Virus record (IMG/VR): IMGVR_UViG_3300049235_000002
Coordinates: 2,934-66,933 of that record
Direction: 5' to 3' (one strand)
Source of the DNA: a virus
Taxonomy: Duplodnaviria; Caudoviricetes
DNA: 64,000 bases
The notes beneath the pieces were generated by a model. It did no database searches, was not told the DNA's origin, and was given only the letters and a program-made list of their open reading frames with translations. A program made the translations under genes and the position numbers. Of this stretch, positions 1 through 64,000 are shown piece by piece (position 1 is the first letter of the stretch; each line of letters begins with the position of its first letter).

Positions 1-2
1 GC

Positions 3-626
3 GAAGACGCGTTACTCACCGGACCACTGGAGCCGACGAACGAGTACTACGCTATCGCCAAGATCGCCGGACTAAAGCTATGTCAAGCCTATCGCAAGCA
101 ATACGGCTTTAACGCGATCTCCGCGATGCCTACAAACCTCTATGGTCCAAACGATCACTTTGATTCAGTTGACGCGCATGTGATCCCCTCACTCATATCG
201 AGAATCTATCGGGCTACGCTCAACGAAGAGCCGCATGTGATGCTGTGGGGAACAGGGCGGGCGAAGCGCGAATTCCTGCACGTTGACGATCTGGCTGATG
301 CGTTGATAATGCTGATGGTTGAGTACAATGAAGCGGAACCGATTAATGTTGGCTCAGGGCAGGAAGTAACGATCCGCGATCTGGCCCACATGGTTGCTGA
401 AGTAGTCGGCTATCGTGGGGAGATTTTGTTTGATTCAACCAAGCCCGATGGTCCGCCTCGCAAGCTGGTAGACAGTTCTCGCATTATATCCCTCGGCTGG
501 CGTGCTAAAATCTCGCTCTATGACGGGCTTCGCTCCACCTTCGACTGGTATCGCGCACGAGTGGGAGAGTCTGGATCAAGGCCAAGCGAGTTGCCTGCGA
601 TGCGGAATAAGCAGCACGAATTATGA
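3..626 (+). CDS. fcl: GDP-L-fucose synthase (GDP-4-keto-6-deoxymannose epimerase/reductase), 5'-truncated by the window edge
   Basis: Frame is open from base 3: EDALLTGPLEPTNEYYAIAKIAGLKLCQAYRKQYGFNAISAMPTNLYGPNDHFD...WGTGRAKREFLHVDDLA...DSTKPDGPPRKLVD. These are characteristic Fcl/WcaG motifs, including the SDR YxxxK. Confidence 0.93.
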   Translation, partial: EDALLTGPLEPTNEYYAIAKIAGLKLCQAYRKQYGFNAISAMPTNLYGPNDHFDSVDAHVIPSLISRIYRATLNEEPHVMLWGTGRAKREFLHVDDLADALIMLMVEYNEAEPINVGSGQEVTIRDLAHMVAEVVGYRGEILFDSTKPDGPPRKLVDSSRIISLGWRAKISLYDGLRSTFDWYRARVGESGSRPSELPAMRNKQHEL

Positions 627-1384
627 TAGTGACATTTGCCAGCCTCGGATTAATGGGCCGATTTTGCAACGGCGCCTACCAGGTGGCCGGGACGATTGGC
701 GTAGCACGTCGCAACAATGCGGACTTCGCCTTCCCGTTATGGATCAATCACGACCATCGGGATCGGTTTGGCTCAAGCGAAGGCGTCAACGTCTACCAGC
801 ATTTTGTCAATCCGTTGCCACTTTATTCCGGTCCACCATTACCCGAGCGCTGGGTCGATTGGGGCTATCAAGACGTGGTGTTAACTGAGAGCGTTAGCCT
901 GAAGGGACATTTTCAATCCGAAAAGTACTTCTTGCATGCACTAGACGAAATCCGGTGGTACTTCCGCATGAAAGACGAACCGCCACGAAATGACTACGTT
1001 GCGATTCACTGGCGCGCAGGGGATTACACTGACGGGGATGGATACCACCCCCGGCTGACAATGGACTACTATCGCTCTGCAATGGCTGAGTTTCACGGTG
1101 CTAAGTTTCTTGTGTTCAGTGACGATATTGCCGGAGCGAAGCAGATGTTTGGGCCAAGTGTTGAGTACTCTGAGGGGCGAGACTACTTGGCTGACTTCAA
1201 GCGACTCAAAACCTGCTCATCATTCATCATTGCCAACTCCAGCTATTCCGCAATGGCCGCAGTGTTGAGTGACGCGCCTGATAAGCGAGTGATTGCGCCG
1301 CGGCCGTGGTTCGGGAAAGCGCACACGCGGATTACGGCGGATGATATTTACGGAGACGATTGGAAGGTGATCGATTGGCGGTAA
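623..1384 (+). CDS. GT11-family alpha-1,2-fucosyltransferase-like protein
   Basis: N-terminal GRFCNGAYQ (GT11 GxLGNQMFQ-like), HWRAGDY (GT11 HxRRGDY), FLVFSDD, and IIANSSYS...A motif. Overlaps the fcl stop (ATGA coupling). Confidence 0.85.
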   Translation: MIVTFASLGLMGRFCNGAYQVAGTIGVARRNNADFAFPLWINHDHRDRFGSSEGVNVYQHFVNPLPLYSGPPLPERWVDWGYQDVVLTESVSLKGHFQSEKYFLHALDEIRWYFRMKDEPPRNDYVAIHWRAGDYTDGDGYHPRLTMDYYRSAMAEFHGAKFLVFSDDIAGAKQMFGPSVEYSEGRDYLADFKRLKTCSSFIIANSSYSAMAAVLSDAPDKRVIAPRPWFGKAHTRITADDIYGDDWKVIDWR

Positions 1385-2286: not shown

Positions 2287-2333
2287 GCCCGCCCGTGGTT
2301 CTCGAAAGAGGATCATTGGCGGGCTTTCTGTTT
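2287..2333 (+). terminator. GC-rich hairpin plus T-rich tract upstream of the prohead protease
   Basis: GCCCGCC/GGCGGGC outer stem, GTGGTTCTC-GAAA-GAGGATCAT inner stem, then TTTCTGTTT. Confidence 0.6.
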
Positions 2334-2343
2334 GGGTTCAACC

Positions 2344-3441
2344 ATGCAAATTGAGCGCAAGTTCATCGACCTTAAAGACCTGACAGTCACAGATGAAGGT
2401 CCGGGTCATATCTCCGGCTATCGAGCTGTCTTTAATGAAATTGATGAGGGCGGGGATCTCATCGTTCCCGGTTTTTTCAAAGACTGCATAACCGAATACT
2501 TGGAGGCAGGCTTCACGGCTCACTCACATGATTGGGACTTCGATAAAGCGGTTGGTTATCCAATGGTAGCGAAGGAAGACGATCACGGCTTTTTCGTTGA
2601 TTCTGAGTTCCACTCTACGTCTGATGCGCAGGCAGTTCGTACTAAGGCGGTTGAGCGCAAGAAAGCCGGGAAGCGTGTTGGCTTCTCGTTTGGTTATTCA
2701 GTCTCAGACAAGTCTTACGTCGAGGCCAAGGACTACAAGGAGCAGTTACCTCTTTATATTAAGCCTGAGCGATTGCAAGCCAATCTTCTCAAGGCGCAGA
2801 AGTTCGACCGCATCCGCATCCTAAAAAAGGGTGAAGTGATTGAAGACTCAATCGTCACCGCGCCGATGAATAGGTTAGCAATGGCGACCGCGGTGAAGTC
2901 GAGCAATGGAGAATCCAAAGGTATGCTGGCCGAGGAGATGGCCCAAACGACTCCCTCTATCTGGGAGGTTGAGTCAGCCTTTCATCGCGTAGTCCGCAAG
3001 GTAGCCGAGACCGCCAAAGACTCCAACGTGACTGGAGCAGTGCTCGACTGGCGGGCAAAGATTACGGATTTGGTTGGTGAGTACGGTCCACAGTTACTGC
3101 CGATCGTGATCGGCCAGATTGAAGACTACCTCGACGGTAGTGACAAGGAATTTTACCTCAAAGGTGAATCGGTATCCGGCTCCTTTGAGTCCTTCGATGC
3201 TGTGGTATCCGCAGTTGAGAAGCATACCCACAACATGCAGCGCAACCACGAGAACCGGGTCAAGGAAGGCCGGATTCTCTCAGCTTCTAATCGGGCGAAG
3301 GTGGTAGCCGCAAGAGATGCGTTAGACCAGCTTCTTGCCGCTTCCGAGCCGAAGGAGCCGGTAGAAAAAGAGATCACCGTGGATACGCTAAGGACTCAAT
3401 CGCTACGCATGCAGAGCCTCGCAATCCGAGCGCTGGCGTAG
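2344..3441 (+). CDS. HK97-family prohead protease with long C-terminal extension
   Basis: ISGYRAVFNEIDEGGDLIVPG, HSHDWD..AVG, GFSFGY, EDSIVTAPMN motifs. Lies directly upstream of the capsid gene. ATG 2344 is preferred to TTG 2332. Confidence 0.88.
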   Translation: MQIERKFIDLKDLTVTDEGPGHISGYRAVFNEIDEGGDLIVPGFFKDCITEYLEAGFTAHSHDWDFDKAVGYPMVAKEDDHGFFVDSEFHSTSDAQAVRTKAVERKKAGKRVGFSFGYSVSDKSYVEAKDYKEQLPLYIKPERLQANLLKAQKFDRIRILKKGEVIEDSIVTAPMNRLAMATAVKSSNGESKGMLAEEMAQTTPSIWEVESAFHRVVRKVAETAKDSNVTGAVLDWRAKITDLVGEYGPQLLPIVIGQIEDYLDGSDKEFYLKGESVSGSFESFDAVVSAVEKHTHNMQRNHENRVKEGRILSASNRAKVVAARDALDQLLAASEPKEPVEKEITVDTLRTQSLRMQSLAIRALA

Positions 3442-3462: not shown

Positions 3463-4773
3463 ATGGCCGAAGAGAAAAAGACAGCCGCGCAGCAGCTTAA
3501 AGAGCTAGTCACGGCAGAGAAAGCATTCTGGGAAAAGCAAGGCGACGAGAAGCCTACCGCTGAGCAGCAGACGGAACTCGACACGCGCTGGAAATCAATT
3601 GAAGATCTAAGCGCGCAGGTTGACGAGGAGAACAAATTCGCTGATCGCAAGAAGCGAGTCAAGGCGCTGGAGACCTTCCTTGCGCAGCCAGTGGATCGCC
3701 CTGACTTTGGCAACGGCAATGGCAACGCTGAGCCGGAACTGAAAACAATGGGCGAGTTGATTATCAACGCTCCTGGCTTCAAAGAGTGGCGTGAACAAGT
3801 AGCCCCCGAAGGCAAGGAGATGACTGCTTCTTACCAGTTCGGGCGCTCACCGACGATCTCGCTCAAGGACATTGGGCTAGGCGACATTTCATTCAAAGAC
3901 ACGCTGGTAATGACCGTGCCGGGATCGGCGGGTGGCTCGCTAGTGCGACGCGACTATGGTCCATGGCCGATTGAATTGCCATTGGGTACGCCGTCCATTC
4001 GCGATGTGATCACAATCCTGCAAACAGGCTCAAATCTCATTGAGTACGTGCGCGTCAACTCGCTTACCCGCGCGGCGCGGATCGTTCCCGAGGCGACTTC
4101 ACTGACTGACGATGCCGCCCTCAAGCCAAAAGCGGCCATGTCGCTTGAAGTCGTGCAAACAGGCGTGAAGACTATCGCGGTCATCATGAACGCCACGCGC
4201 ACGATCCTTGCTGACTATCCGCAACTCCAATCGATGATGACGAACTTTATGCGTACGGACATTGACCTGATGTTGGAAGAGGAGATCATTAGTGGTCCGG
4301 GCGGTGCAAATCACTTTGAGGGGCTAGAGAACACGCCAAATCTTACTACGCAGAATTTCGATACCGACATGCTTACGACCGCACGTAAGGCGCGCACTAA
4401 GGCGTCCATTGTGGGACGTGCTCGATCAACAGCGTTCCTGCTCAATTCCTACGACTGGGAGGAGCTGGATCTAACGAAGGACGCTGAGAACCGTTACTAC
4501 TTCGGCGGACCGTTGGCAATGGGCCAGAAGATGCTGTGGGGCTTGCCCGTAATTGAGTCCGAAGTCATCCCGCAAGGCACGGGCTACACAGGCGATCTAA
4601 AGCAGTTAGTAGTCTGGGACAGGCAAGATCCGAGCATCTACATCACCGACTCAAACCGCGATCACTTCGAGCGCAATATTATCGATATCCTGTATGAAGG
4701 CCGATGGGCTTTCGGTGTGTTGCGACCGCCCGCCGTCGTGAAGATTGACTTTCACGCTGGAGCGAATAGTTAG
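3463..4773 (+). CDS. Major capsid protein (HK97 fold) with N-terminal coiled-coil delta domain
   Basis: N-terminal helical scaffold; AARIVPE...KPKA, IAVIMNATRTILADYPQL, LWGLPVIESEVIP..GYTGD, FERN...EGRWAFGVLRPPA. SD AAGGAG. Confidence 0.93.
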   Translation: MAEEKKTAAQQLKELVTAEKAFWEKQGDEKPTAEQQTELDTRWKSIEDLSAQVDEENKFADRKKRVKALETFLAQPVDRPDFGNGNGNAEPELKTMGELIINAPGFKEWREQVAPEGKEMTASYQFGRSPTISLKDIGLGDISFKDTLVMTVPGSAGGSLVRRDYGPWPIELPLGTPSIRDVITILQTGSNLIEYVRVNSLTRAARIVPEATSLTDDAALKPKAAMSLEVVQTGVKTIAVIMNATRTILADYPQLQSMMTNFMRTDIDLMLEEEIISGPGGANHFEGLENTPNLTTQNFDTDMLTTARKARTKASIVGRARSTAFLLNSYDWEELDLTKDAENRYYFGGPLAMGQKMLWGLPVIESEVIPQGTGYTGDLKQLVVWDRQDPSIYITDSNRDHFERNIIDILYEGRWAFGVLRPPAVVKIDFHAGANS

Positions 4774-4858: not shown

Positions 4859-6175
4859 ATGCGCATGCGTATTGTGGGATATTTTCACTTAGCTGTGCCG
4901 GAGCATAATGCTGGGAGCGAAGTTACCGTTCACGCCGCTCTTCGCGCAATGGTGAATCGCGGCCATACGGTCAACGTCATTTGCGATCGCAGCAAGACTG
5001 CGCCTTATGAGATTGACGGTATCAACGTCGTCCGGCCACCGCGTCGAGGCGTGCAATCATGGCTGGAGCATTACGTCAAAGACTCTGATCTTCTTGTCAC
5101 GCATCTTGACCTCACCAGCCAGGCCATGAGCCTTGCAATGGCAACGAAGATTCCCCTTGTCCACTTCGTGCACAACGACGCTCAACTCATGTATTGGCGC
5201 GTTGATGCGCGCGTGCCTTACAAGAACGCGCTGGCGATCTACAACTCACACTGGTTAGCCACGAAGCGCAGTCACTGGGCCGGACAGGAAATACCGGACG
5301 AATGGCTGGCTCCGTCCATTGTCATCCATCCGGTAGTTGAGCCGGAACGTTACCGCTGTGAAACTGGGACAAAGATCACGCTCGTCAACCCGACGCCGAC
5401 TAAAGGTGCAAACACTTTCAAGGCATTGGCGAAGCAGATGCCTGATAGGGAATTTCTCGCAGTCGAAGGCGGCTACGGCGATCAAGTGATCACTGCGCCG
5501 GGAACAGATTCGCGTTATGCAGCATCGGGCAATATCGAATGGATGGCCCATACGCCGGACATTCGCGAAGTGTTTCGCAAAACTAAAGTACTGCTTATGC
5601 CTTCTGATTACGAATCCTATGGTCGTGTCGGCATCGAGGCGGCGTGTGCGGGAATTCCAACGATCGCGCATCCGACTGAGGGATTGAAGGAAGCGTTTGG
5701 TAAGGCGGGGATCTTCATTGACCGCAACGATATAGCCGCATGGTACTTAGAAGTCGATCGCCTGCTCACTGATGAAGCCTACTATCGCGAACGCTCAGAA
5801 GCGGTACTTGCTCTGGCTGCATCTTTAGATCCCGAGGGTGAGTTTGATAGGCTTGAGGCGGCGCTAATCGAGACCGCCGCACGATACAGAAACGGAGTAC
5901 CGGAAGCGATGAAAATGTGGACCTCGGACCGCTGGATCTACAAGATGCAAGATGGCAGTTACCAAGCAGTTGATAATCCGGGACGGATTCCCACCGGCGC
6001 AGCGGTGCAGATCGCCGGGAAAGGTACGCAGATTCCTGAATCAATGGCGCGTGAGCATGGCTGGATTGACGTTGACGCCAAGGCGATCCCTGCTCCGGCT
6101 GAGAACAAGGCGATTGTAGGGCCGGAGGAGAACAAGCAGCGTGCCCGTAAAAAGATTGATGAGGTAGCAGCGTAA
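4859..6175 (+). CDS. GT4 (GT-B) glycosyltransferase fused to a C-terminal capsid-accessory-like domain
   Basis: AGSE..HAALRAMVNRGHTVNV start; LLMPSDYESYGRVGIEAACAGIP (E-x7-E). About 90 extra C-terminal residues: WTSDRWIYK...GKGTQIPESMAREHGW...KAIPAPAENKAIVGPEENK. Confidence 0.88.
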   Translation: MRMRIVGYFHLAVPEHNAGSEVTVHAALRAMVNRGHTVNVICDRSKTAPYEIDGINVVRPPRRGVQSWLEHYVKDSDLLVTHLDLTSQAMSLAMATKIPLVHFVHNDAQLMYWRVDARVPYKNALAIYNSHWLATKRSHWAGQEIPDEWLAPSIVIHPVVEPERYRCETGTKITLVNPTPTKGANTFKALAKQMPDREFLAVEGGYGDQVITAPGTDSRYAASGNIEWMAHTPDIREVFRKTKVLLMPSDYESYGRVGIEAACAGIPTIAHPTEGLKEAFGKAGIFIDRNDIAAWYLEVDRLLTDEAYYRERSEAVLALAASLDPEGEFDRLEAALIETAARYRNGVPEAMKMWTSDRWIYKMQDGSYQAVDNPGRIPTGAAVQIAGKGTQIPESMAREHGWIDVDAKAIPAPAENKAIVGPEENKQRARKKIDEVAA

Positions 6176-6189
6176 AAGGAGTGATCTAA

Positions 6190-6567
6190 ATGGGAACATT
6201 TGCTGATTCTGTGGCTAATTCATTTCTTGACGCTTTTGCTCGCAACGTTTCTTACGCGAATGCGGCTGTGTGGGTGAAGCTCCATCTTGGCGATCCAGGC
6301 TCTGCGGGAACCGCGAATGCGGCGGTAGAAACAACTCGGCAACAGGCGATTTTTGGTTCAGCAGCAGCAAGCCGCGCGATCTCCAACACCGCTGTTATTG
6401 AATGGCTCAACGTAAGCACTACGGAAACCTACACGCATATTAGCTTGTGGACTGCTTCAAGTGCCGGGACGTTTCTTGGGCGAGACGATCTTTCGTCATC
6501 GGCGGCAGTGACGGCAGGCGACACATTTCGGATTCCGATCGGCGATCTCGACCTCACCTTCACATAA
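6190..6567 (+). CDS. Small virion structural protein (head/fibre-associated family)
   Basis: VWVKLHLGDPG...ETTRQQAIF...SNTAVIEW...THISLW...GTFLG..L..S.AVTAGDTFRI pattern, common after capsid genes. Confidence 0.65.
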   Translation: MGTFADSVANSFLDAFARNVSYANAAVWVKLHLGDPGSAGTANAAVETTRQQAIFGSAAASRAISNTAVIEWLNVSTTETYTHISLWTASSAGTFLGRDDLSSSAAVTAGDTFRIPIGDLDLTFT

Positions 6568-11408: not shown

Positions 11409-12284
11409 ATGTTTACCAAGGAACCAACTGAAACTTTGGATTTTAGTATAGGCTGGGTTGACTGGCTTGGTTCCCTCACAATCGCCTCATCCGCTTGGAC
11501 TGGCCCAACTGGAATCACGATTGTTGCTGACGAGTTTAGCGCAACCGATACGACCGTTAAACTTGGCGGCGGTACATGGGCAGAGGTTTACGAACTCAGT
11601 AATACAATCATCGCGAGCGATGGTCAGACCGAGACGCGCAGTTTCTATATCCGCATCCAGCGCTCAGTTGCGTACTGCTCCTCAACCGAAGTGAGACGTC
11701 GCGCGCAGGGAGGGGCAGGCGCGGGAGGCTCAGCTACAACTGCGTCGCTGACTCCCGCTGAGTTAGACGCGTTAATTGAGCAGGCATCGCGTATGTTCGA
11801 TCTTGAGTGCGGCGTACCTGAAGGTTACTTCAATCCCGTTGAGATTCCTATTGCTACAACGAAAACAATCTACGGTGACGGGGGTAATTACCTGCAACTT
11901 CCGCCGTACCTACCCGGCACATTGTCAATCTCTGTTCCAGCCGATTACACAACCCCAACCTACGCGGAGCAAAACAGCCATCTCGTGCTGACTACTGAAA
12001 GTGGGCTACTACCACCATTTAACCGCTTTTATAACCTTTCATGGCCGGGCTGGTGGTCGGGAGTGGCTGTTACGGTATCGGCTGTGTGGGGCTGGCGTGA
12101 AACTCCGCAAGATGTTAAAGCGGCAGTGATTGAGTGGGTGCTGAATCTTTGGCGAGAAACCGACCCCGCTGCGGTCAAGTTAGTCGGACTGGAAGGGCAA
12201 CCTCTAAGAGAGCCGATTCCACCCCGTGTCAAGGCTATTGCGCGCAAGTGGCGCGGTAAGGCAGCAGGGCCAGCATTTACATGA
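11409..12284 (+). CDS. Head-tail connector/adaptor with a fused N-terminal ~85-aa Ig-like domain
   Basis: N-term FTKEPTETLDFSIGWVDWL...GG...YELSNTI..SDGQTETRS. C-term LIEQASRMFD...WGW.ETPQDVKAAVIEW..LW...IPPRVKAIARKWR (gp6/gp15-like). Confidence 0.75.
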   Translation: MFTKEPTETLDFSIGWVDWLGSLTIASSAWTGPTGITIVADEFSATDTTVKLGGGTWAEVYELSNTIIASDGQTETRSFYIRIQRSVAYCSSTEVRRRAQGGAGAGGSATTASLTPAELDALIEQASRMFDLECGVPEGYFNPVEIPIATTKTIYGDGGNYLQLPPYLPGTLSISVPADYTTPTYAEQNSHLVLTTESGLLPPFNRFYNLSWPGWWSGVAVTVSAVWGWRETPQDVKAAVIEWVLNLWRETDPAAVKLVGLEGQPLREPIPPRVKAIARKWRGKAAGPAFT

Positions 12285-13334: not shown

Positions 13335-13378
13335 GCCCGCCCTTTCTCTTAACCGAGGAAGTGGCGGGCTTTTCTTTT
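13335..13378 (+). terminator. Hairpin with TTAACC loop plus T-tract upstream of the tail tube gene
   Basis: GCCCGCC-CTTTCTC-TTAACC-GAGGAAG-T-GGCGGGC then TTTTCTTTT. Confidence 0.6.
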
Positions 13379-13396
13379 CACAAAGGAGATCCTCCA

Positions 13397-14023
13397 ATGG
13401 CGGGCACGGCAGACAATTTCAGCACGGTTGACGTAGGGATCGGGCCGGGGAAGTTTTACATCGATCTCGGTGGCGGCACTGACGCATGGGACGGCGCGGC
13501 GGGCGTAAGATTAATCCTCGATGCGGATGGCTCACCTGACTCAACACAGAATCCCAACGCCCGTCACGTTGGCTGGACTGACGCAGGCTGGCAGTTCCTC
13601 GTCAAGCCAACCTTCACCCAGTTCTTTGCCGACGAGTCACCTGATCCAATTATCTCGCGCGTGACGGCGCAGGAAGCGGTGATTTCAGGTTCTCTGTTGC
13701 AAGTCATGGACATGGATCTGGCCGAGGTGCTGAATCCAACGCTCACCCGCAGCGACGTGATGGGCTCTACAGGCGTGACGATCGGCAACGCAGATCCGCA
13801 GTATACCTCCGTGGCACTCATCTGGCCGTTTGAGGACGACCCGACGCGGTTTGGCGTAGTGCATCTCTATAAGGCATTTAACGACGCCGGACTTGCAGGA
13901 AATATCACGAGCAAGGAAATCAGCAAGTCGCCGGTAGCGTTTCGCGGGCTTGCGGTATCGACTCGCGCGGCTGCTGATCGTGTCGGGCGCTTCTTTACTC
14001 AGAACGCGGGGGCGCAGTCGTAA
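13397..14023 (+). CDS. Major tail tube protein
   Basis: IGPGKFY...VGWTDAGWQF...ISGSLLQ...VVHLYKA pattern. ATG 13397 has SD AAGGAG. Confidence 0.8.
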   Translation: MAGTADNFSTVDVGIGPGKFYIDLGGGTDAWDGAAGVRLILDADGSPDSTQNPNARHVGWTDAGWQFLVKPTFTQFFADESPDPIISRVTAQEAVISGSLLQVMDMDLAEVLNPTLTRSDVMGSTGVTIGNADPQYTSVALIWPFEDDPTRFGVVHLYKAFNDAGLAGNITSKEISKSPVAFRGLAVSTRAAADRVGRFFTQNAGAQS

Positions 14024-43296: not shown

Positions 43297-44382
43297 TCAT
43301 GCCCTCAACGTCATCGTGATGTAGCGATAGTTCACGTCATCACCCGCGCTCAATTGAAATAGATTCAGATCATCATTGAACGCGACCATTGGACTCGTCT
43401 CCGTGTCGATGAATGTAATGAAGTGTGCGCCGTTAACACCGATGGTTAACTTGTCACCGTTCAGCGTTGGACAGTCAATTGGTAATATCTCAGTCGATTG
43501 CCCGATCTCACTCTCCTTCGTCTCAATCGTCATCTCTTTCTGTGACAAGCTGACACGCAGCGGGATCGGGATAAGCGCATATTCCTTAGCTGTTACAGCA
43601 GCGAGTCGAAACGCTTGGCTTGCAGTATCGGCATTCAACGCAAACGAGTGCTTGAACGACGCCGGAACTAGGGGACGCCAGTCGGGGAACCGTGCGTCAA
43701 GCAGTCGCGTGATGAACACGCGGGAGCCTTGCTGAAATACCGCTTGATTTGCATTTGCCCCGACTTGGACCTCGCCGTCGAGGAACTTGACCAGCGCGGT
43801 TGCGGCACGGGTAGGCAGGATTAGATCCACGGTTAGACTGCTCGCAATGCCCGTTGTTGCCAAATGCCTACTGTTAGTTCCAGTCACCATCACCACTCCC
43901 TCACGCGAACACAACGATACACCCGCCATCCACGCATCTTTGGCGTCAGGCGTGACGCAGCGCAGAGCGCGAGTGATTGCCGTGGCGAGAGCTGTGCCAT
44001 CCATTGCGACCATCTCGACCTGTGGGCGCTCAGTCTCAGGGAATTGGATGACGGACTGAACCGGCAACTTGTGCCGCGACTTGCCCCAGCGCACACTGAC
44101 ACGCTCATTCGCCTCTGGCTTAAATTCAACCGTCTCGTCACCACACAACCTCACAATTTCCAGCAACTGTTTTGTCGGCACGCATCCGGCCCATGCATCC
44201 CCGCTAGCTTCAATCTCCGTGATGATGGTTGTGTCGATGTCTGTGGCGGTGAGCATGAGTGTCGTGCCAGTGAAGTCGAACTTCGTAGTGGATAACACGG
44301 GCATAGTTGACCTCTTCTCAGCCGTGGTGGCGAGTAGGGCCAGCTCAGTTGCGAGTAGCTTGCGGTTAACGGCGAAGGTCAT
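43297..44382 (-). CDS. dnaN: DNA polymerase III beta sliding clamp homologue
   Basis: STMPVLS, LMLTATDIDT, SRHKLPVQ...QFP, VTGTNSRHLA, TRLLDARFPDWRPLVP, IGVNGAHF, YITMTLR. Confidence 0.85.
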   Translation of the reverse strand: MTFAVNRKLLATELALLATTAEKRSTMPVLSTTKFDFTGTTLMLTATDIDTTIITEIEASGDAWAGCVPTKQLLEIVRLCGDETVEFKPEANERVSVRWGKSRHKLPVQSVIQFPETERPQVEMVAMDGTALATAITRALRCVTPDAKDAWMAGVSLCSREGVVMVTGTNSRHLATTGIASSLTVDLILPTRAATALVKFLDGEVQVGANANQAVFQQGSRVFITRLLDARFPDWRPLVPASFKHSFALNADTASQAFRLAAVTAKEYALIPIPLRVSLSQKEMTIETKESEIGQSTEILPIDCPTLNGDKLTIGVNGAHFITFIDTETSPMVAFNDDLNLFQLSAGDDVNYRYITMTLRA

Positions 44383-62478: not shown

Positions 62479-63090
62479 ATGTGGTCCTTCTTCCAGCGCC
62501 GCGTTTGCCTGACAACTCTCGACAGCGAGTGGCAACTGGCGCAACGTGAATTCCAGCGTGTTAATCTGACCGTCGAGAAGTTCCAATCGCTTCCCGACAT
62601 CGGCCCGCATCAATCGTTCAATAAGTCAGAGCGAGAGATCCTGTGTCAGTTCTACCTCTCAGACGCACAAACACTGCTGCACCTCGAAGACGATTGCGTG
62701 TTTCGTGACCTGAGTCATCTGGAGCAAGCGTTAGGCGAGCTACCTGACGACTGGGATATTGTTTATCTAGGCGCGAATTTAGTTTGCCGGAACAATGGCG
62801 AGCCACGGCCAGAGCGCTACAGCGAGCATCTATGGCGCGTGAAAGCCGCCTGGACCACGCATGCAATCGGTTATAATCGCAAGTGTGTCTACGAGCTTTT
62901 AGCCAAACAGCCTGCGTTCTCTGAAATCATGTTTGATACGTGGCTGTCAACGAGACTGCCAGAGTTAAATGCGTATTGTGTCGCGCCGATGGTGGCGTGG
63001 CAGAGGCCGCGTGTGAGCAGCATCTGGCAACGTGGCTATGTTGATGACTACACGGAAATCTTTCAGGCAAGTGAGGCGAGGTTGAGATGA
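62479..63090 (+). CDS. GT25-like (GT-A) glycosyltransferase
   Basis: LHLEDDCVF...LPDDWDIVYLG...WTTHAIGY...D.W...PMVAWQ. Confidence 0.8.
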   Translation: MWSFFQRRVCLTTLDSEWQLAQREFQRVNLTVEKFQSLPDIGPHQSFNKSEREILCQFYLSDAQTLLHLEDDCVFRDLSHLEQALGELPDDWDIVYLGANLVCRNNGEPRPERYSEHLWRVKAAWTTHAIGYNRKCVYELLAKQPAFSEIMFDTWLSTRLPELNAYCVAPMVAWQRPRVSSIWQRGYVDDYTEIFQASEARLR

Positions 63091-63341
63091 GAAAGTGTCG
63101 AGATTGTAAGTTTTGGGGATGGGATGGCGACATGGACACCGATACGCGCGACTGCATTCTGTTCTCTGACAATCCAAACCTCATTAACGATCCGTTTCCG
63201 TTCACTAATGCACCCCATCCGTTGGGTGACGCACGGTTTGAGATCCGTAAGGCGTCTGCGTTTCCATTTGCGGGCGCAGACGGCGCAACGCTTAACACGG
63301 ATGCGGAATTTGGATGCGTTCAATGGGAGGCGCGAACTTGA
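63087..63341 (+). CDS. Small Cys-containing protein
   Basis: CRDCKFW...C...FGCVQWE; ATGA/TTGA coupling. Confidence 0.6.
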   Translation: MRKCRDCKFWGWDGDMDTDTRDCILFSDNPNLINDPFPFTNAPHPLGDARFEIRKASAFPFAGADGATLNTDAEFGCVQWEART

Positions 63342-64000
63342 TTCATCTTGTTACATTCTCAGATGAAAGCATGAGCCGTGCCGCGGATCTGTGCATCAAG
63401 AGCGCAGAGGCCCATGGTGTAGAGGCGGAATGGGGCGAGTGGACACCGCGGGCCGTTAGTTCACGAGATAGTGGAACGCTCAGACAGTTAATTGAATCTG
63501 GCGCACGTGGCTGCGGGTACTGGAGTTGGAAGCCCTTCATAATTACCGACGCCATGATGCTTGCCTACGAAAACGACGTGATCGTATACGCAGACGCCGG
63601 AGTCGAGTTCATCAACAGCGTCAACTACATCATTGACCGCATGGATCAGGACATCTTTTTATTCGGAAACAACTGGGAACACGCGCACTGGTGTAAGAGA
63701 GATATTGTTGACCAAGTGTGGCCGATGGCTCCAAGCATATTCAAACCACCACACACAGATCCGTGGGGCTGGTTCAGCAAGCAATGCCAAGCCTCAGTAA
63801 TCTTCTTTCGTGTCTCTGACTACTCAAAACAGTTTGTTGCTGAATGGTTGAAGTGGTGCCTGTTTGAGGGCGGAAGATTGATTGATGACTCACCAAGTAG
63901 AGCACCGAACCACGAACAATTCCAGGAAAACAGGCACGATCAAGCAATCTTAACGACGATGGCGTACAGGGAAGGGTTACGCCTTCACTACTGGCCTGCG
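63338..64000 (+). CDS. GT-A-type glycosyltransferase-like protein, 3'-truncated (not in ORF track)
   Basis: Hand translation from TTG: IHLVTFSD...RGCGYWSWKP...IVYADAG...W.K.CL....IDDSPS...F.ENRHDQAILT; open to the window end. Confidence 0.72.
   Translation, partial: MIHLVTFSDESMSRAADLCIKSAEAHGVEAEWGEWTPRAVSSRDSGTLRQLIESGARGCGYWSWKPFIITDAMMLAYENDVIVYADAGVEFINSVNYIIDRMDQDIFLFGNNWEHAHWCKRDIVDQVWPMAPSIFKPPHTDPWGWFSKQCQASVIFFRVSDYSKQFVAEWLKWCLFEGGRLIDDSPSRAPNHEQFQENRHDQAILTTMAYREGLRLHYWPA

Follow-up and report, generated by a model that had tools for sequence, protein, structure and literature searches.

The fused gene and its two parts

The DNA analyzed here, referred to as the window, is a stretch of 64,000 nucleotides (nt) of a Caudoviricetes virus and corresponds to bases 2934-66933 of a 66,933-bp IMG/VR virus record (IMGVR_UViG_3300049235_000002) that has direct terminal repeats. 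The subject of this report is the gene at 4859..6175 on the plus strand, which encodes a protein of 438 amino acids (aa) plus stop in which a GT4 glycosyltransferase is fused to a C-terminal module related to small proteins that are encoded after phage capsid genes. The initial annotation placed the gene directly after the major capsid gene and this was borne out, as the upstream gene (3463..4773, +) encodes an HK97-type major capsid protein (PF05065, 7e-31) and ends 85 nt before it. No significant terminator, promoter or RNA structure was found between the two genes. Relatives of the protein use the second ATG, at 4865, as the start.

Residues 1-344 (4859..5890, +) make up the GT-B (GT4) catalytic part, as judged from Pfam, PHROG, AlphaFold2 and Foldseek. 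Three Pfam families match residues 1 to about 345 above their gathering scores, namely PF00534 (6e-14; 52.3 bits, cut-off 26.4), PF13692 (4e-13; 50.2 bits, cut-off 27) and PF13579 (4e-8; 34.3 bits, cut-off 29.7). The PHROG family phrog_26352 matches the 438-aa protein at 9e-78 and covers residues 2-347 only. These matches assign residues 1 to about 345 to GT4 and, within phages, to the clade phrog_26352. AlphaFold2, run with 20 homologues, modelled a GT-B fold of two Rossmann-like domains (mean predicted local distance difference test score, pLDDT, 81.7), with the last helix at 325-344. The E-x7-E motif is formed by E252 and E260, which are spaced eight residues apart and do not vary among 20 homologues. 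The best Foldseek matches of the catalytic part are MshA, BshA, PimA and PglA (E 1e-11 to 4e-16), with template modelling scores of 0.55-0.62 for the first three. These retaining GT4s share the GT-B fold and the E-x7-E motif with the phage enzyme, but they are only 14-19% identical to it, use small-molecule or lipid acceptors, and none has the phage tail. The initial description of a complete GT-B domain that reaches to about residue 345 and is followed by about 90 aa thus agrees with the ends of the Pfam and PHROG matches and with the end of the last helix at 344. The peptide segments quoted in that description do occur in the protein.

The tail begins with a small beta domain, residues 351-404 (5909..6070, +), that was recognized from the AlphaFold2 model, profile searches and hhalign as homologous to the N-terminal domain of a stand-alone protein family. 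In the model five short strands and a helix are present at 353-399 (pLDDT 70-82), and residues 406-438 are disordered. The domain is followed by two tandem repeats of 27 nt or 9 aa (KAIxxPxEN; 6079..6132, +), so that the 'P.ENK' units of the protein are a genuine tandem 27-nt duplication, and by a basic, disordered C-terminal end (6134..6172, +) that was delimited by alignment and the AlphaFold2 model. W354, D357, G366, G389, A397, G401, P413, E415, K417, E424 and K426 are invariant in the tails of the full-length homologues. Nearly all fused relatives end in a Lys/Arg-rich stretch followed by ..AA, which recalls ssrA-type C-terminal degrons, unlike the stand-alone family, whose members mostly end in Lys/Arg.

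The tail is not a normal feature of cellular GT4s, and the initial reading of it as an addition to the enzyme stands. The Pfam GT4 models and phrog_26352 end before it, and tail-less actinophage-like relatives exist. A search of one genome per prokaryote species matched only GT4s of Acidobacteriota metagenome-assembled genomes that are 26-33% identical, with matches that end at residue <=349; no cellular GT4 with the tail was found among these genomes.

A family of small post-capsid proteins

When the tail was searched alone against phage proteins, tblastn against 50,697 GenBank phages gave no match at E <=1, and a profile made from eleven tails, used in an exhaustive search of 1.84 billion protein representatives (E <=1e-3), matched a stand-alone post-capsid family. 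The profile gave 50 matches. About 35 of them are small proteins (60-140 aa) built in the same way, matched down to E 1e-20, and the rest are GT4 fusions or fragments. In members of the family an N-terminal domain of the form W.SDRR.(Y/W)...DG....GG.IP...A...GL is joined by a variable linker to between one and three KAxxxPxENK-type units, and the C-terminus is basic. The corresponding N-terminal pattern, W.SDR..(Y/W)....G... and GG.IP...A...G(L/W), is present in the fused tail, and hhalign aligned the fused tails with the free proteins with 99.4% probability (E 7e-22) over 84 columns that span both the domain and the repeats. The resemblance to stand-alone P.ENK-repeat post-capsid proteins that had been noted initially is confirmed by this alignment and by gene position. 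The family comprises at least 511 clusters at 90% identity, all of them annotated as 'hypothetical' and none with a Pfam domain.

No model for the tail or the free family is present in Pfam, PHROGs or NCBIfam, and a PDB sequence search with the tail gave no match. Structural searches with the tail model were similarly uninformative. The PDB matches from Foldseek had E values of 0.6 or higher (MbtH-like proteins, no better than noise), the best Z that VIA-align reached among 48,161 chains was 2.2, and BFVD returned only unnamed viral proteins of 63-78 aa (E 0.02-0.5). In the ESM Atlas the tail had weak leads only, to small viral hypothetical proteins.

The position of the free genes has been established in several phages. 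MW202444.1 has, one after the other, genes for terminase, portal, protease and capsid, a 120-aa open reading frame (ORF), a 76-aa family member (UOF76938.1) and the tail connector. In Sinorhizobium phage StopSmel the capsid gene is followed by an 87-aa ORF, a 64-aa member (gp34) and the head-to-tail adaptor. MW202444.1 is distantly related to the window phage across the structural module (identities of 29% for the portal, 31% for the protease, 28% for the capsid protein, 33% for the connector, 43% for the next gene, 32% for the tube and 32% for the chaperone), and therefore its free gene corresponds in syntenic position to the fused module. The family member is an ORF of 70-150 aa in 25 IMG/VR loci. 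A capsid gene (PF05065 or phrog_10) was found upstream of it, at a distance of 0-3 ORFs, in the 13 loci that were tested and had informative upstream sequence. A gp6-like connector is encoded downstream of the free gene in at least one locus (L042, 28.8 bits); the match in L033 is below the Pfam threshold. By sequence and position, then, the tail belongs to a post-capsid family that has no name, as a fused rather than a free member. The stand-alone members, such as StopSmel gp34 and UOF76938.1, share with it the beta domain, the KAxxxPxENK-type repeats, the basic end and the slot between capsid and connector genes. They differ in that they are free proteins of 60-140 aa from phages without an adjacent glycosyltransferase or capsid tag, whereas here the module is the C-terminus of an enzyme.

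The module occurs in other architectures too, since Microcystis phage Mwe-Yong1112-1 encodes, two genes after the capsid gene, a protein of 257 aa (L024 5800-6573) that contains the family domain together with a hydrophobic N-terminal segment and a long Pro-rich region. A free member of 150 aa (L043 4980-5432) has an extra C-terminal segment that appears HeH/Rho_N-like by eye only, is unconfirmed, and was negative in a PDB sequence search. A search for longer proteins found no other fusions of the module, which is weak evidence; one 2078-aa candidate, P0147, was discarded as a spurious plectin-repeat match. In two loci, L035 and L041, HNH_3 ORFs adjoin the free small gene.

Lambda gpFI may be the best functional analogy for the stand-alone family. 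It consists of a small folded domain and a flexible region, bridges the procapsid and the terminase-DNA complex, and is a DNA-packaging chaperone (PMC13595911). Like members of the stand-alone family, gpFI (PDB 2LSM) is small, and its gene lies between those for the capsid protein (E) and for head-tail joining (FII), but the likeness is one of position and architecture only. No gpFI-related match to the tail was obtained by the Pfam scan, PDB sequence search, Foldseek or VIA-align.

Conservation of the fusion

More than 100 homologues (420-467 aa), drawn from independent metagenomes, align to the protein over its full length at 54-94% identity, and many of them are located on contigs of 64-69 kb. 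The fusion persists in relatives down to about 52% identity. Because homologues from this many independent sources retain the tail, it is no assembly artefact. The fusion is retained in every known member of this phage lineage, and the fused copy is the only copy of the tail module in the genome. An un-fused arrangement of GT4 plus module was not found among the more than 100 relatives; two short matches considered as split forms, P0046 and P0113, were rejected since they look like contig-end truncations. The linker between the GT4 and the tail varies in both sequence and length among relatives.

In the IMG/VR relatives the fused gene also follows directly on the capsid gene, except where ORFs have been inserted between the two. 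These are HNH homing-endonuclease ORFs or, in one case, two small ORFs without known function. The HNH-type homing-endonuclease-like ORFs in this gap lie at L007 5208-5945 (+), L009 5315-5914 (-) and L015 5448-6002 (-). The head module is mosaic, with the protease only 44-70% identical in L008, L011 and L014, where the capsid protein is 80-97% and the GT4 70-94% identical.

The more distant members of the GT4 clade have no tail. Among them are proteins of L020 and L021, two high-G+C contigs that are actinophage-like (45% and 38% identity), and gp20 of Streptomyces phage TurkishDelight (32%). These members of the phrog_26352 clade are 31-45% identical to the window protein over residues 3-343 and their genes likewise lie directly or nearly directly after the capsid gene in the structural module. 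They differ in that they stop at about 340-350 aa or, as in gp20, consist of two glycosyltransferase copies in tandem, without the 90-aa tail.

Serine tags and the predicted acceptor

The major capsid protein of the window has an eight-residue C-terminal extension, residues 429-436 (4747-4770), that ends in HAGANS and is proposed to be an acceptor tag; alignments to the capsid proteins of other phages end at residue 427/428. The putative major tail (tube) protein (13361..14023, +) ends in NAGAQS (14003-14020). These two, capsid and tube being the most abundant proteins of the virion, are the only ones among 255 ORFs (ORFs >=60 aa, six frames) to end in AG..S. The capsid tag is kept in all relatives of the lineage, and the tube tag is kept in four complete relatives and is ...VGS in the most divergent one. 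No such extension is present in the tube homologue of MW202444.1 or in 13 capsid proteins of free-family loci, which have no adjacent GT4. The capsid proteins encoded beside the tail-less GT4s of L020, L021 and TurkishDelight also end in Ser (...GANS, ...SAAS and ...GSTS), and the major tail protein of TurkishDelight ends in ...VAS. What appears to be new here is the combination of shared Ser-ending tags on capsid and putative tube proteins that co-occur with a GT4 clade.

Upstream of the protease lies a cassette of sugar-related genes. The window begins within a GDP-fucose-synthase-like epimerase/reductase gene, of which only the 3' part is included (1..626, +; complete at L002 2594-3559), followed by a GT11 fucosyltransferase-like gene (623..1384, +; Pfam, PHROG). 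The third gene, an FkbM-like methyltransferase gene with a weak Pfam match, was located at L002 854-1546. The cassette of FkbM-like methyltransferase, GDP-fucose-synthase-like gene and GT11 is conserved with the protease, capsid and GT4 genes throughout the lineage, including relatives in which GT4 identity has fallen to 52%. A GDP-mannose dehydratase gene was not seen in the cassette. Both the GT4 and the GT11 are phage-encoded and lack membrane anchors.

A comparable system has been described in mycobacteriophages. Freeman et al., in 2023, in Cell Host Microbe 31:1216, reportedly demonstrated virion O-glycosylation in Che8 and other cluster F1 phages. The Che8 capsid ends in ...TGS and its tube in ...DGS. 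In both systems a short Ser-terminated C-terminal end is common to the capsid and tail-tube subunits, and the glycosyltransferases are soluble and phage-encoded. Glycosylation of the Che8 capsid is mentioned in a passage of PMC11256854 that cites Freeman et al. 2023. The systems differ in that the enzyme is encoded at the far genome end in Che8 and directly after the capsid gene here, and the window enzyme is not detectably homologous by tblastn, is accompanied by fucose-pathway genes and has a C-terminal fused module. From its genes, the window system is predicted to function in the manner of the mycobacteriophage one.

The tags, the adjacency of GT4 and capsid genes, the Che8 ends and the conserved sugar cassette make virion O-glycosylation likely, and modification of the terminal serine tags on capsid and tube is, with reasonable confidence, the likeliest function of the system. 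The GT4 would probably add the first sugar to the terminal serine tag in the cytoplasm, and the products of the GT11, GDP-fucose-synthase-like and FkbM-like genes would extend the glycan. Of the initial suggestion of capsid or fibre glycosylation, the capsid part gains support from the shared C-terminal tags, and for the fibre part no support was found.

Phage glycosyltransferases are often seroconversion or DNA-modification enzymes. The GT4 could act off the virion, on host envelope glycans in seroconversion or superinfection exclusion or on phage DNA, with its position next to the capsid gene being incidental. A weak local match of the GT4 part to PF20706, 'GT4 in conflict systems' (32.8 bits), could be taken to point this way. 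However, very distant phages keep the capsid gene and the GT4 next to each other, and the serine tags are found together with the enzyme. Neither membrane segments nor Gtr/flippase partners were seen, and the ORFs scanned contained no hydroxymethyl-base pathway. A target away from the virion is thus very improbable.

A possible internal start at the domain boundary

Exactly at the domain boundary of the fused gene there is a GGAG (5894-5897) followed by an in-frame ATG at 5909 (5894..5911, +), noted from its pairing with the anti-Shine-Dalgarno sequence and from comparison with relatives. An ATG or GTG is found 1-4 codons before W354 in all 15 relatives examined, and the free proteins begin exactly at this point. 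The pairing of the internal start with the anti-Shine-Dalgarno sequence is within the best 17% of in-frame internal starts in each of these 15 relatives, and in 8 of them no other in-frame internal start pairs as well. The GGAG and the ATG at 5909 may be the vestigial or still active start of an ancestral small gene, and a free short product of about 88 aa may be made from it.

These observations bear on the main rival to a targeting role for the module. It has two neighbouring genes fused without any gain in targeting, the module keeping its ancestral role in head assembly or DNA packaging mainly as the free protein of about 88 aa from 5909, and the long form being a tolerated by-product. Besides the conserved and well-paired start, the finding that tail-less GT4s go with tagged capsids elsewhere speaks for such a history, as does the lack of a second module copy, since the ancestral function must then come from the fused gene. 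On the other hand, the stretch that resembles a Shine-Dalgarno sequence is purine-rich and could merely reflect Gly/Glu/Lys linker codons. Moreover, no split version was found across the range of 52-94% identity even though the linker varies, a pattern that favours selection on the continuous reading frame. On balance a fusion without targeting seems rather unlikely.

A possible docking role for the module

We favour, with moderate confidence, a reading in which the phage has a system for O-glycosylation of its virion, and the gene codes for the capsid-adjacent enzyme of this system and was born by fusion with a small post-capsid gene. In the simplest history, a GT4 gene that lay between the capsid gene and the small post-capsid gene would have lost its stop codon. 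The fused module may then dock the enzyme on procapsids; its free relatives probably bind the assembling head much like lambda gpFI. Such docking would place the enzyme beside hundreds of acceptor tags. The fixed place of the free family by the capsid genes, its gpFI-like architecture and the unbroken fusion despite a variable linker argue for docking by analogy, and we give it somewhat less than even odds. A broader proposal is more tentative still, namely that HK97-type phages generally use the 'ENK' family as an adaptor for docking on the head, and that it was captured here to place a glycosyltransferase on the surface of the assembling capsid, with the free form from the internal start sharing the docking sites.

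Several points weigh against the favoured reading. Tail-less GT4s of the same clade adjoin genes for Ser-tagged capsids, and the tube carries a tag as well; acceptor recognition therefore does not require the tail. Free family members are also found in phages that have no tags. The stand-alone family matches no family model and no solved structure. The conserved internal start with a good Shine-Dalgarno sequence fits a module that still works alone. A tblastn search of the 438-aa protein against 50,697 phage records at E 1e-5 matched only TurkishDelight and no Che8 enzyme. Finally, the phage is uncultured and its glycosylation is predicted from genes alone.

The tail might instead be an encapsidation signal, by which the enzyme is carried into the procapsid or virion for delivery to the next host. 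Short conserved repeats and a basic end on a disordered C-terminus do resemble capsid-targeting or encapsulin cargo peptides, and the gene is located in the head module. However, a GT4 that depends on nucleotide sugars and acts on C-terminal tags has no obvious use inside a capsid, and it stays unexplained why some 500 small stand-alone proteins would be packaged. Encapsidation is improbable for these reasons; both packaging of the enzyme in the virion and a target off the virion are less likely than docking or the fusion of neighbouring genes without targeting.

Neighbouring genes and phage type

The gene upstream of the capsid gene (2332..3441, +) encodes a prohead protease of the S78 type with a long C-terminal extension, identified by Pfam and PHROG. 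Two Pfam families named after the podophage GP4, Gp80 'fiber I' and Gp77 'fiber-tail adaptor', match 6190-6567 and 11409-12284. An identity as a GP4-like podophage that was considered from these names was dropped given the tube, chaperone and 1169-aa tape-measure-like genes. Homologues of Gp80 occur in about 360 mycobacteriophage (siphovirus) records, and this, together with the tube, chaperone and tape-measure-like genes of the window, makes the GP4-derived family names misleading on morphology. The MW202444.1 connector aligns to residues 117-286 of the gp77-like protein.

Further along the window, 43297-44382 on the minus strand encodes a DNA polymerase III beta sliding clamp with all three domains, and near it are genes for a SNF2-like helicase, a D5-type primase-helicase, a PD-(D/E)XK nuclease and an N6/N4 DNA methylase. 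Two ORFs near the end of the window, at 62479-63090 and 63314-64000, had no Pfam match at E <=0.01. From the G+C content of 53% and the origin of the lineage in soil metagenomes, the host is probably not an actinobacterium.

Significance

To our knowledge virion glycosylation has been shown experimentally only for mycobacteriophages, in which it affects antibody recognition. The locus described here would represent a compact and conserved system from a soil phage lineage unrelated to these, combining a tag, an enzyme encoded beside the capsid and genes of a sugar pathway. The predicted acceptor is precise: the serine that ends the AGAxS tag of the capsid and tube proteins. The fusion also provides a Rosetta-stone link for a very common but unannotated post-capsid family and suggests that this family acts at the capsid, and the tail is a natural module that could be used as a candidate capsid-docking handle. 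If the family is indeed a general head-docking adaptor, the GT4 would be the first phage enzyme to be recruited to its capsid substrate via fusion to an assembly accessory protein, and a function would be assigned to a family of >500 unannotated clusters.

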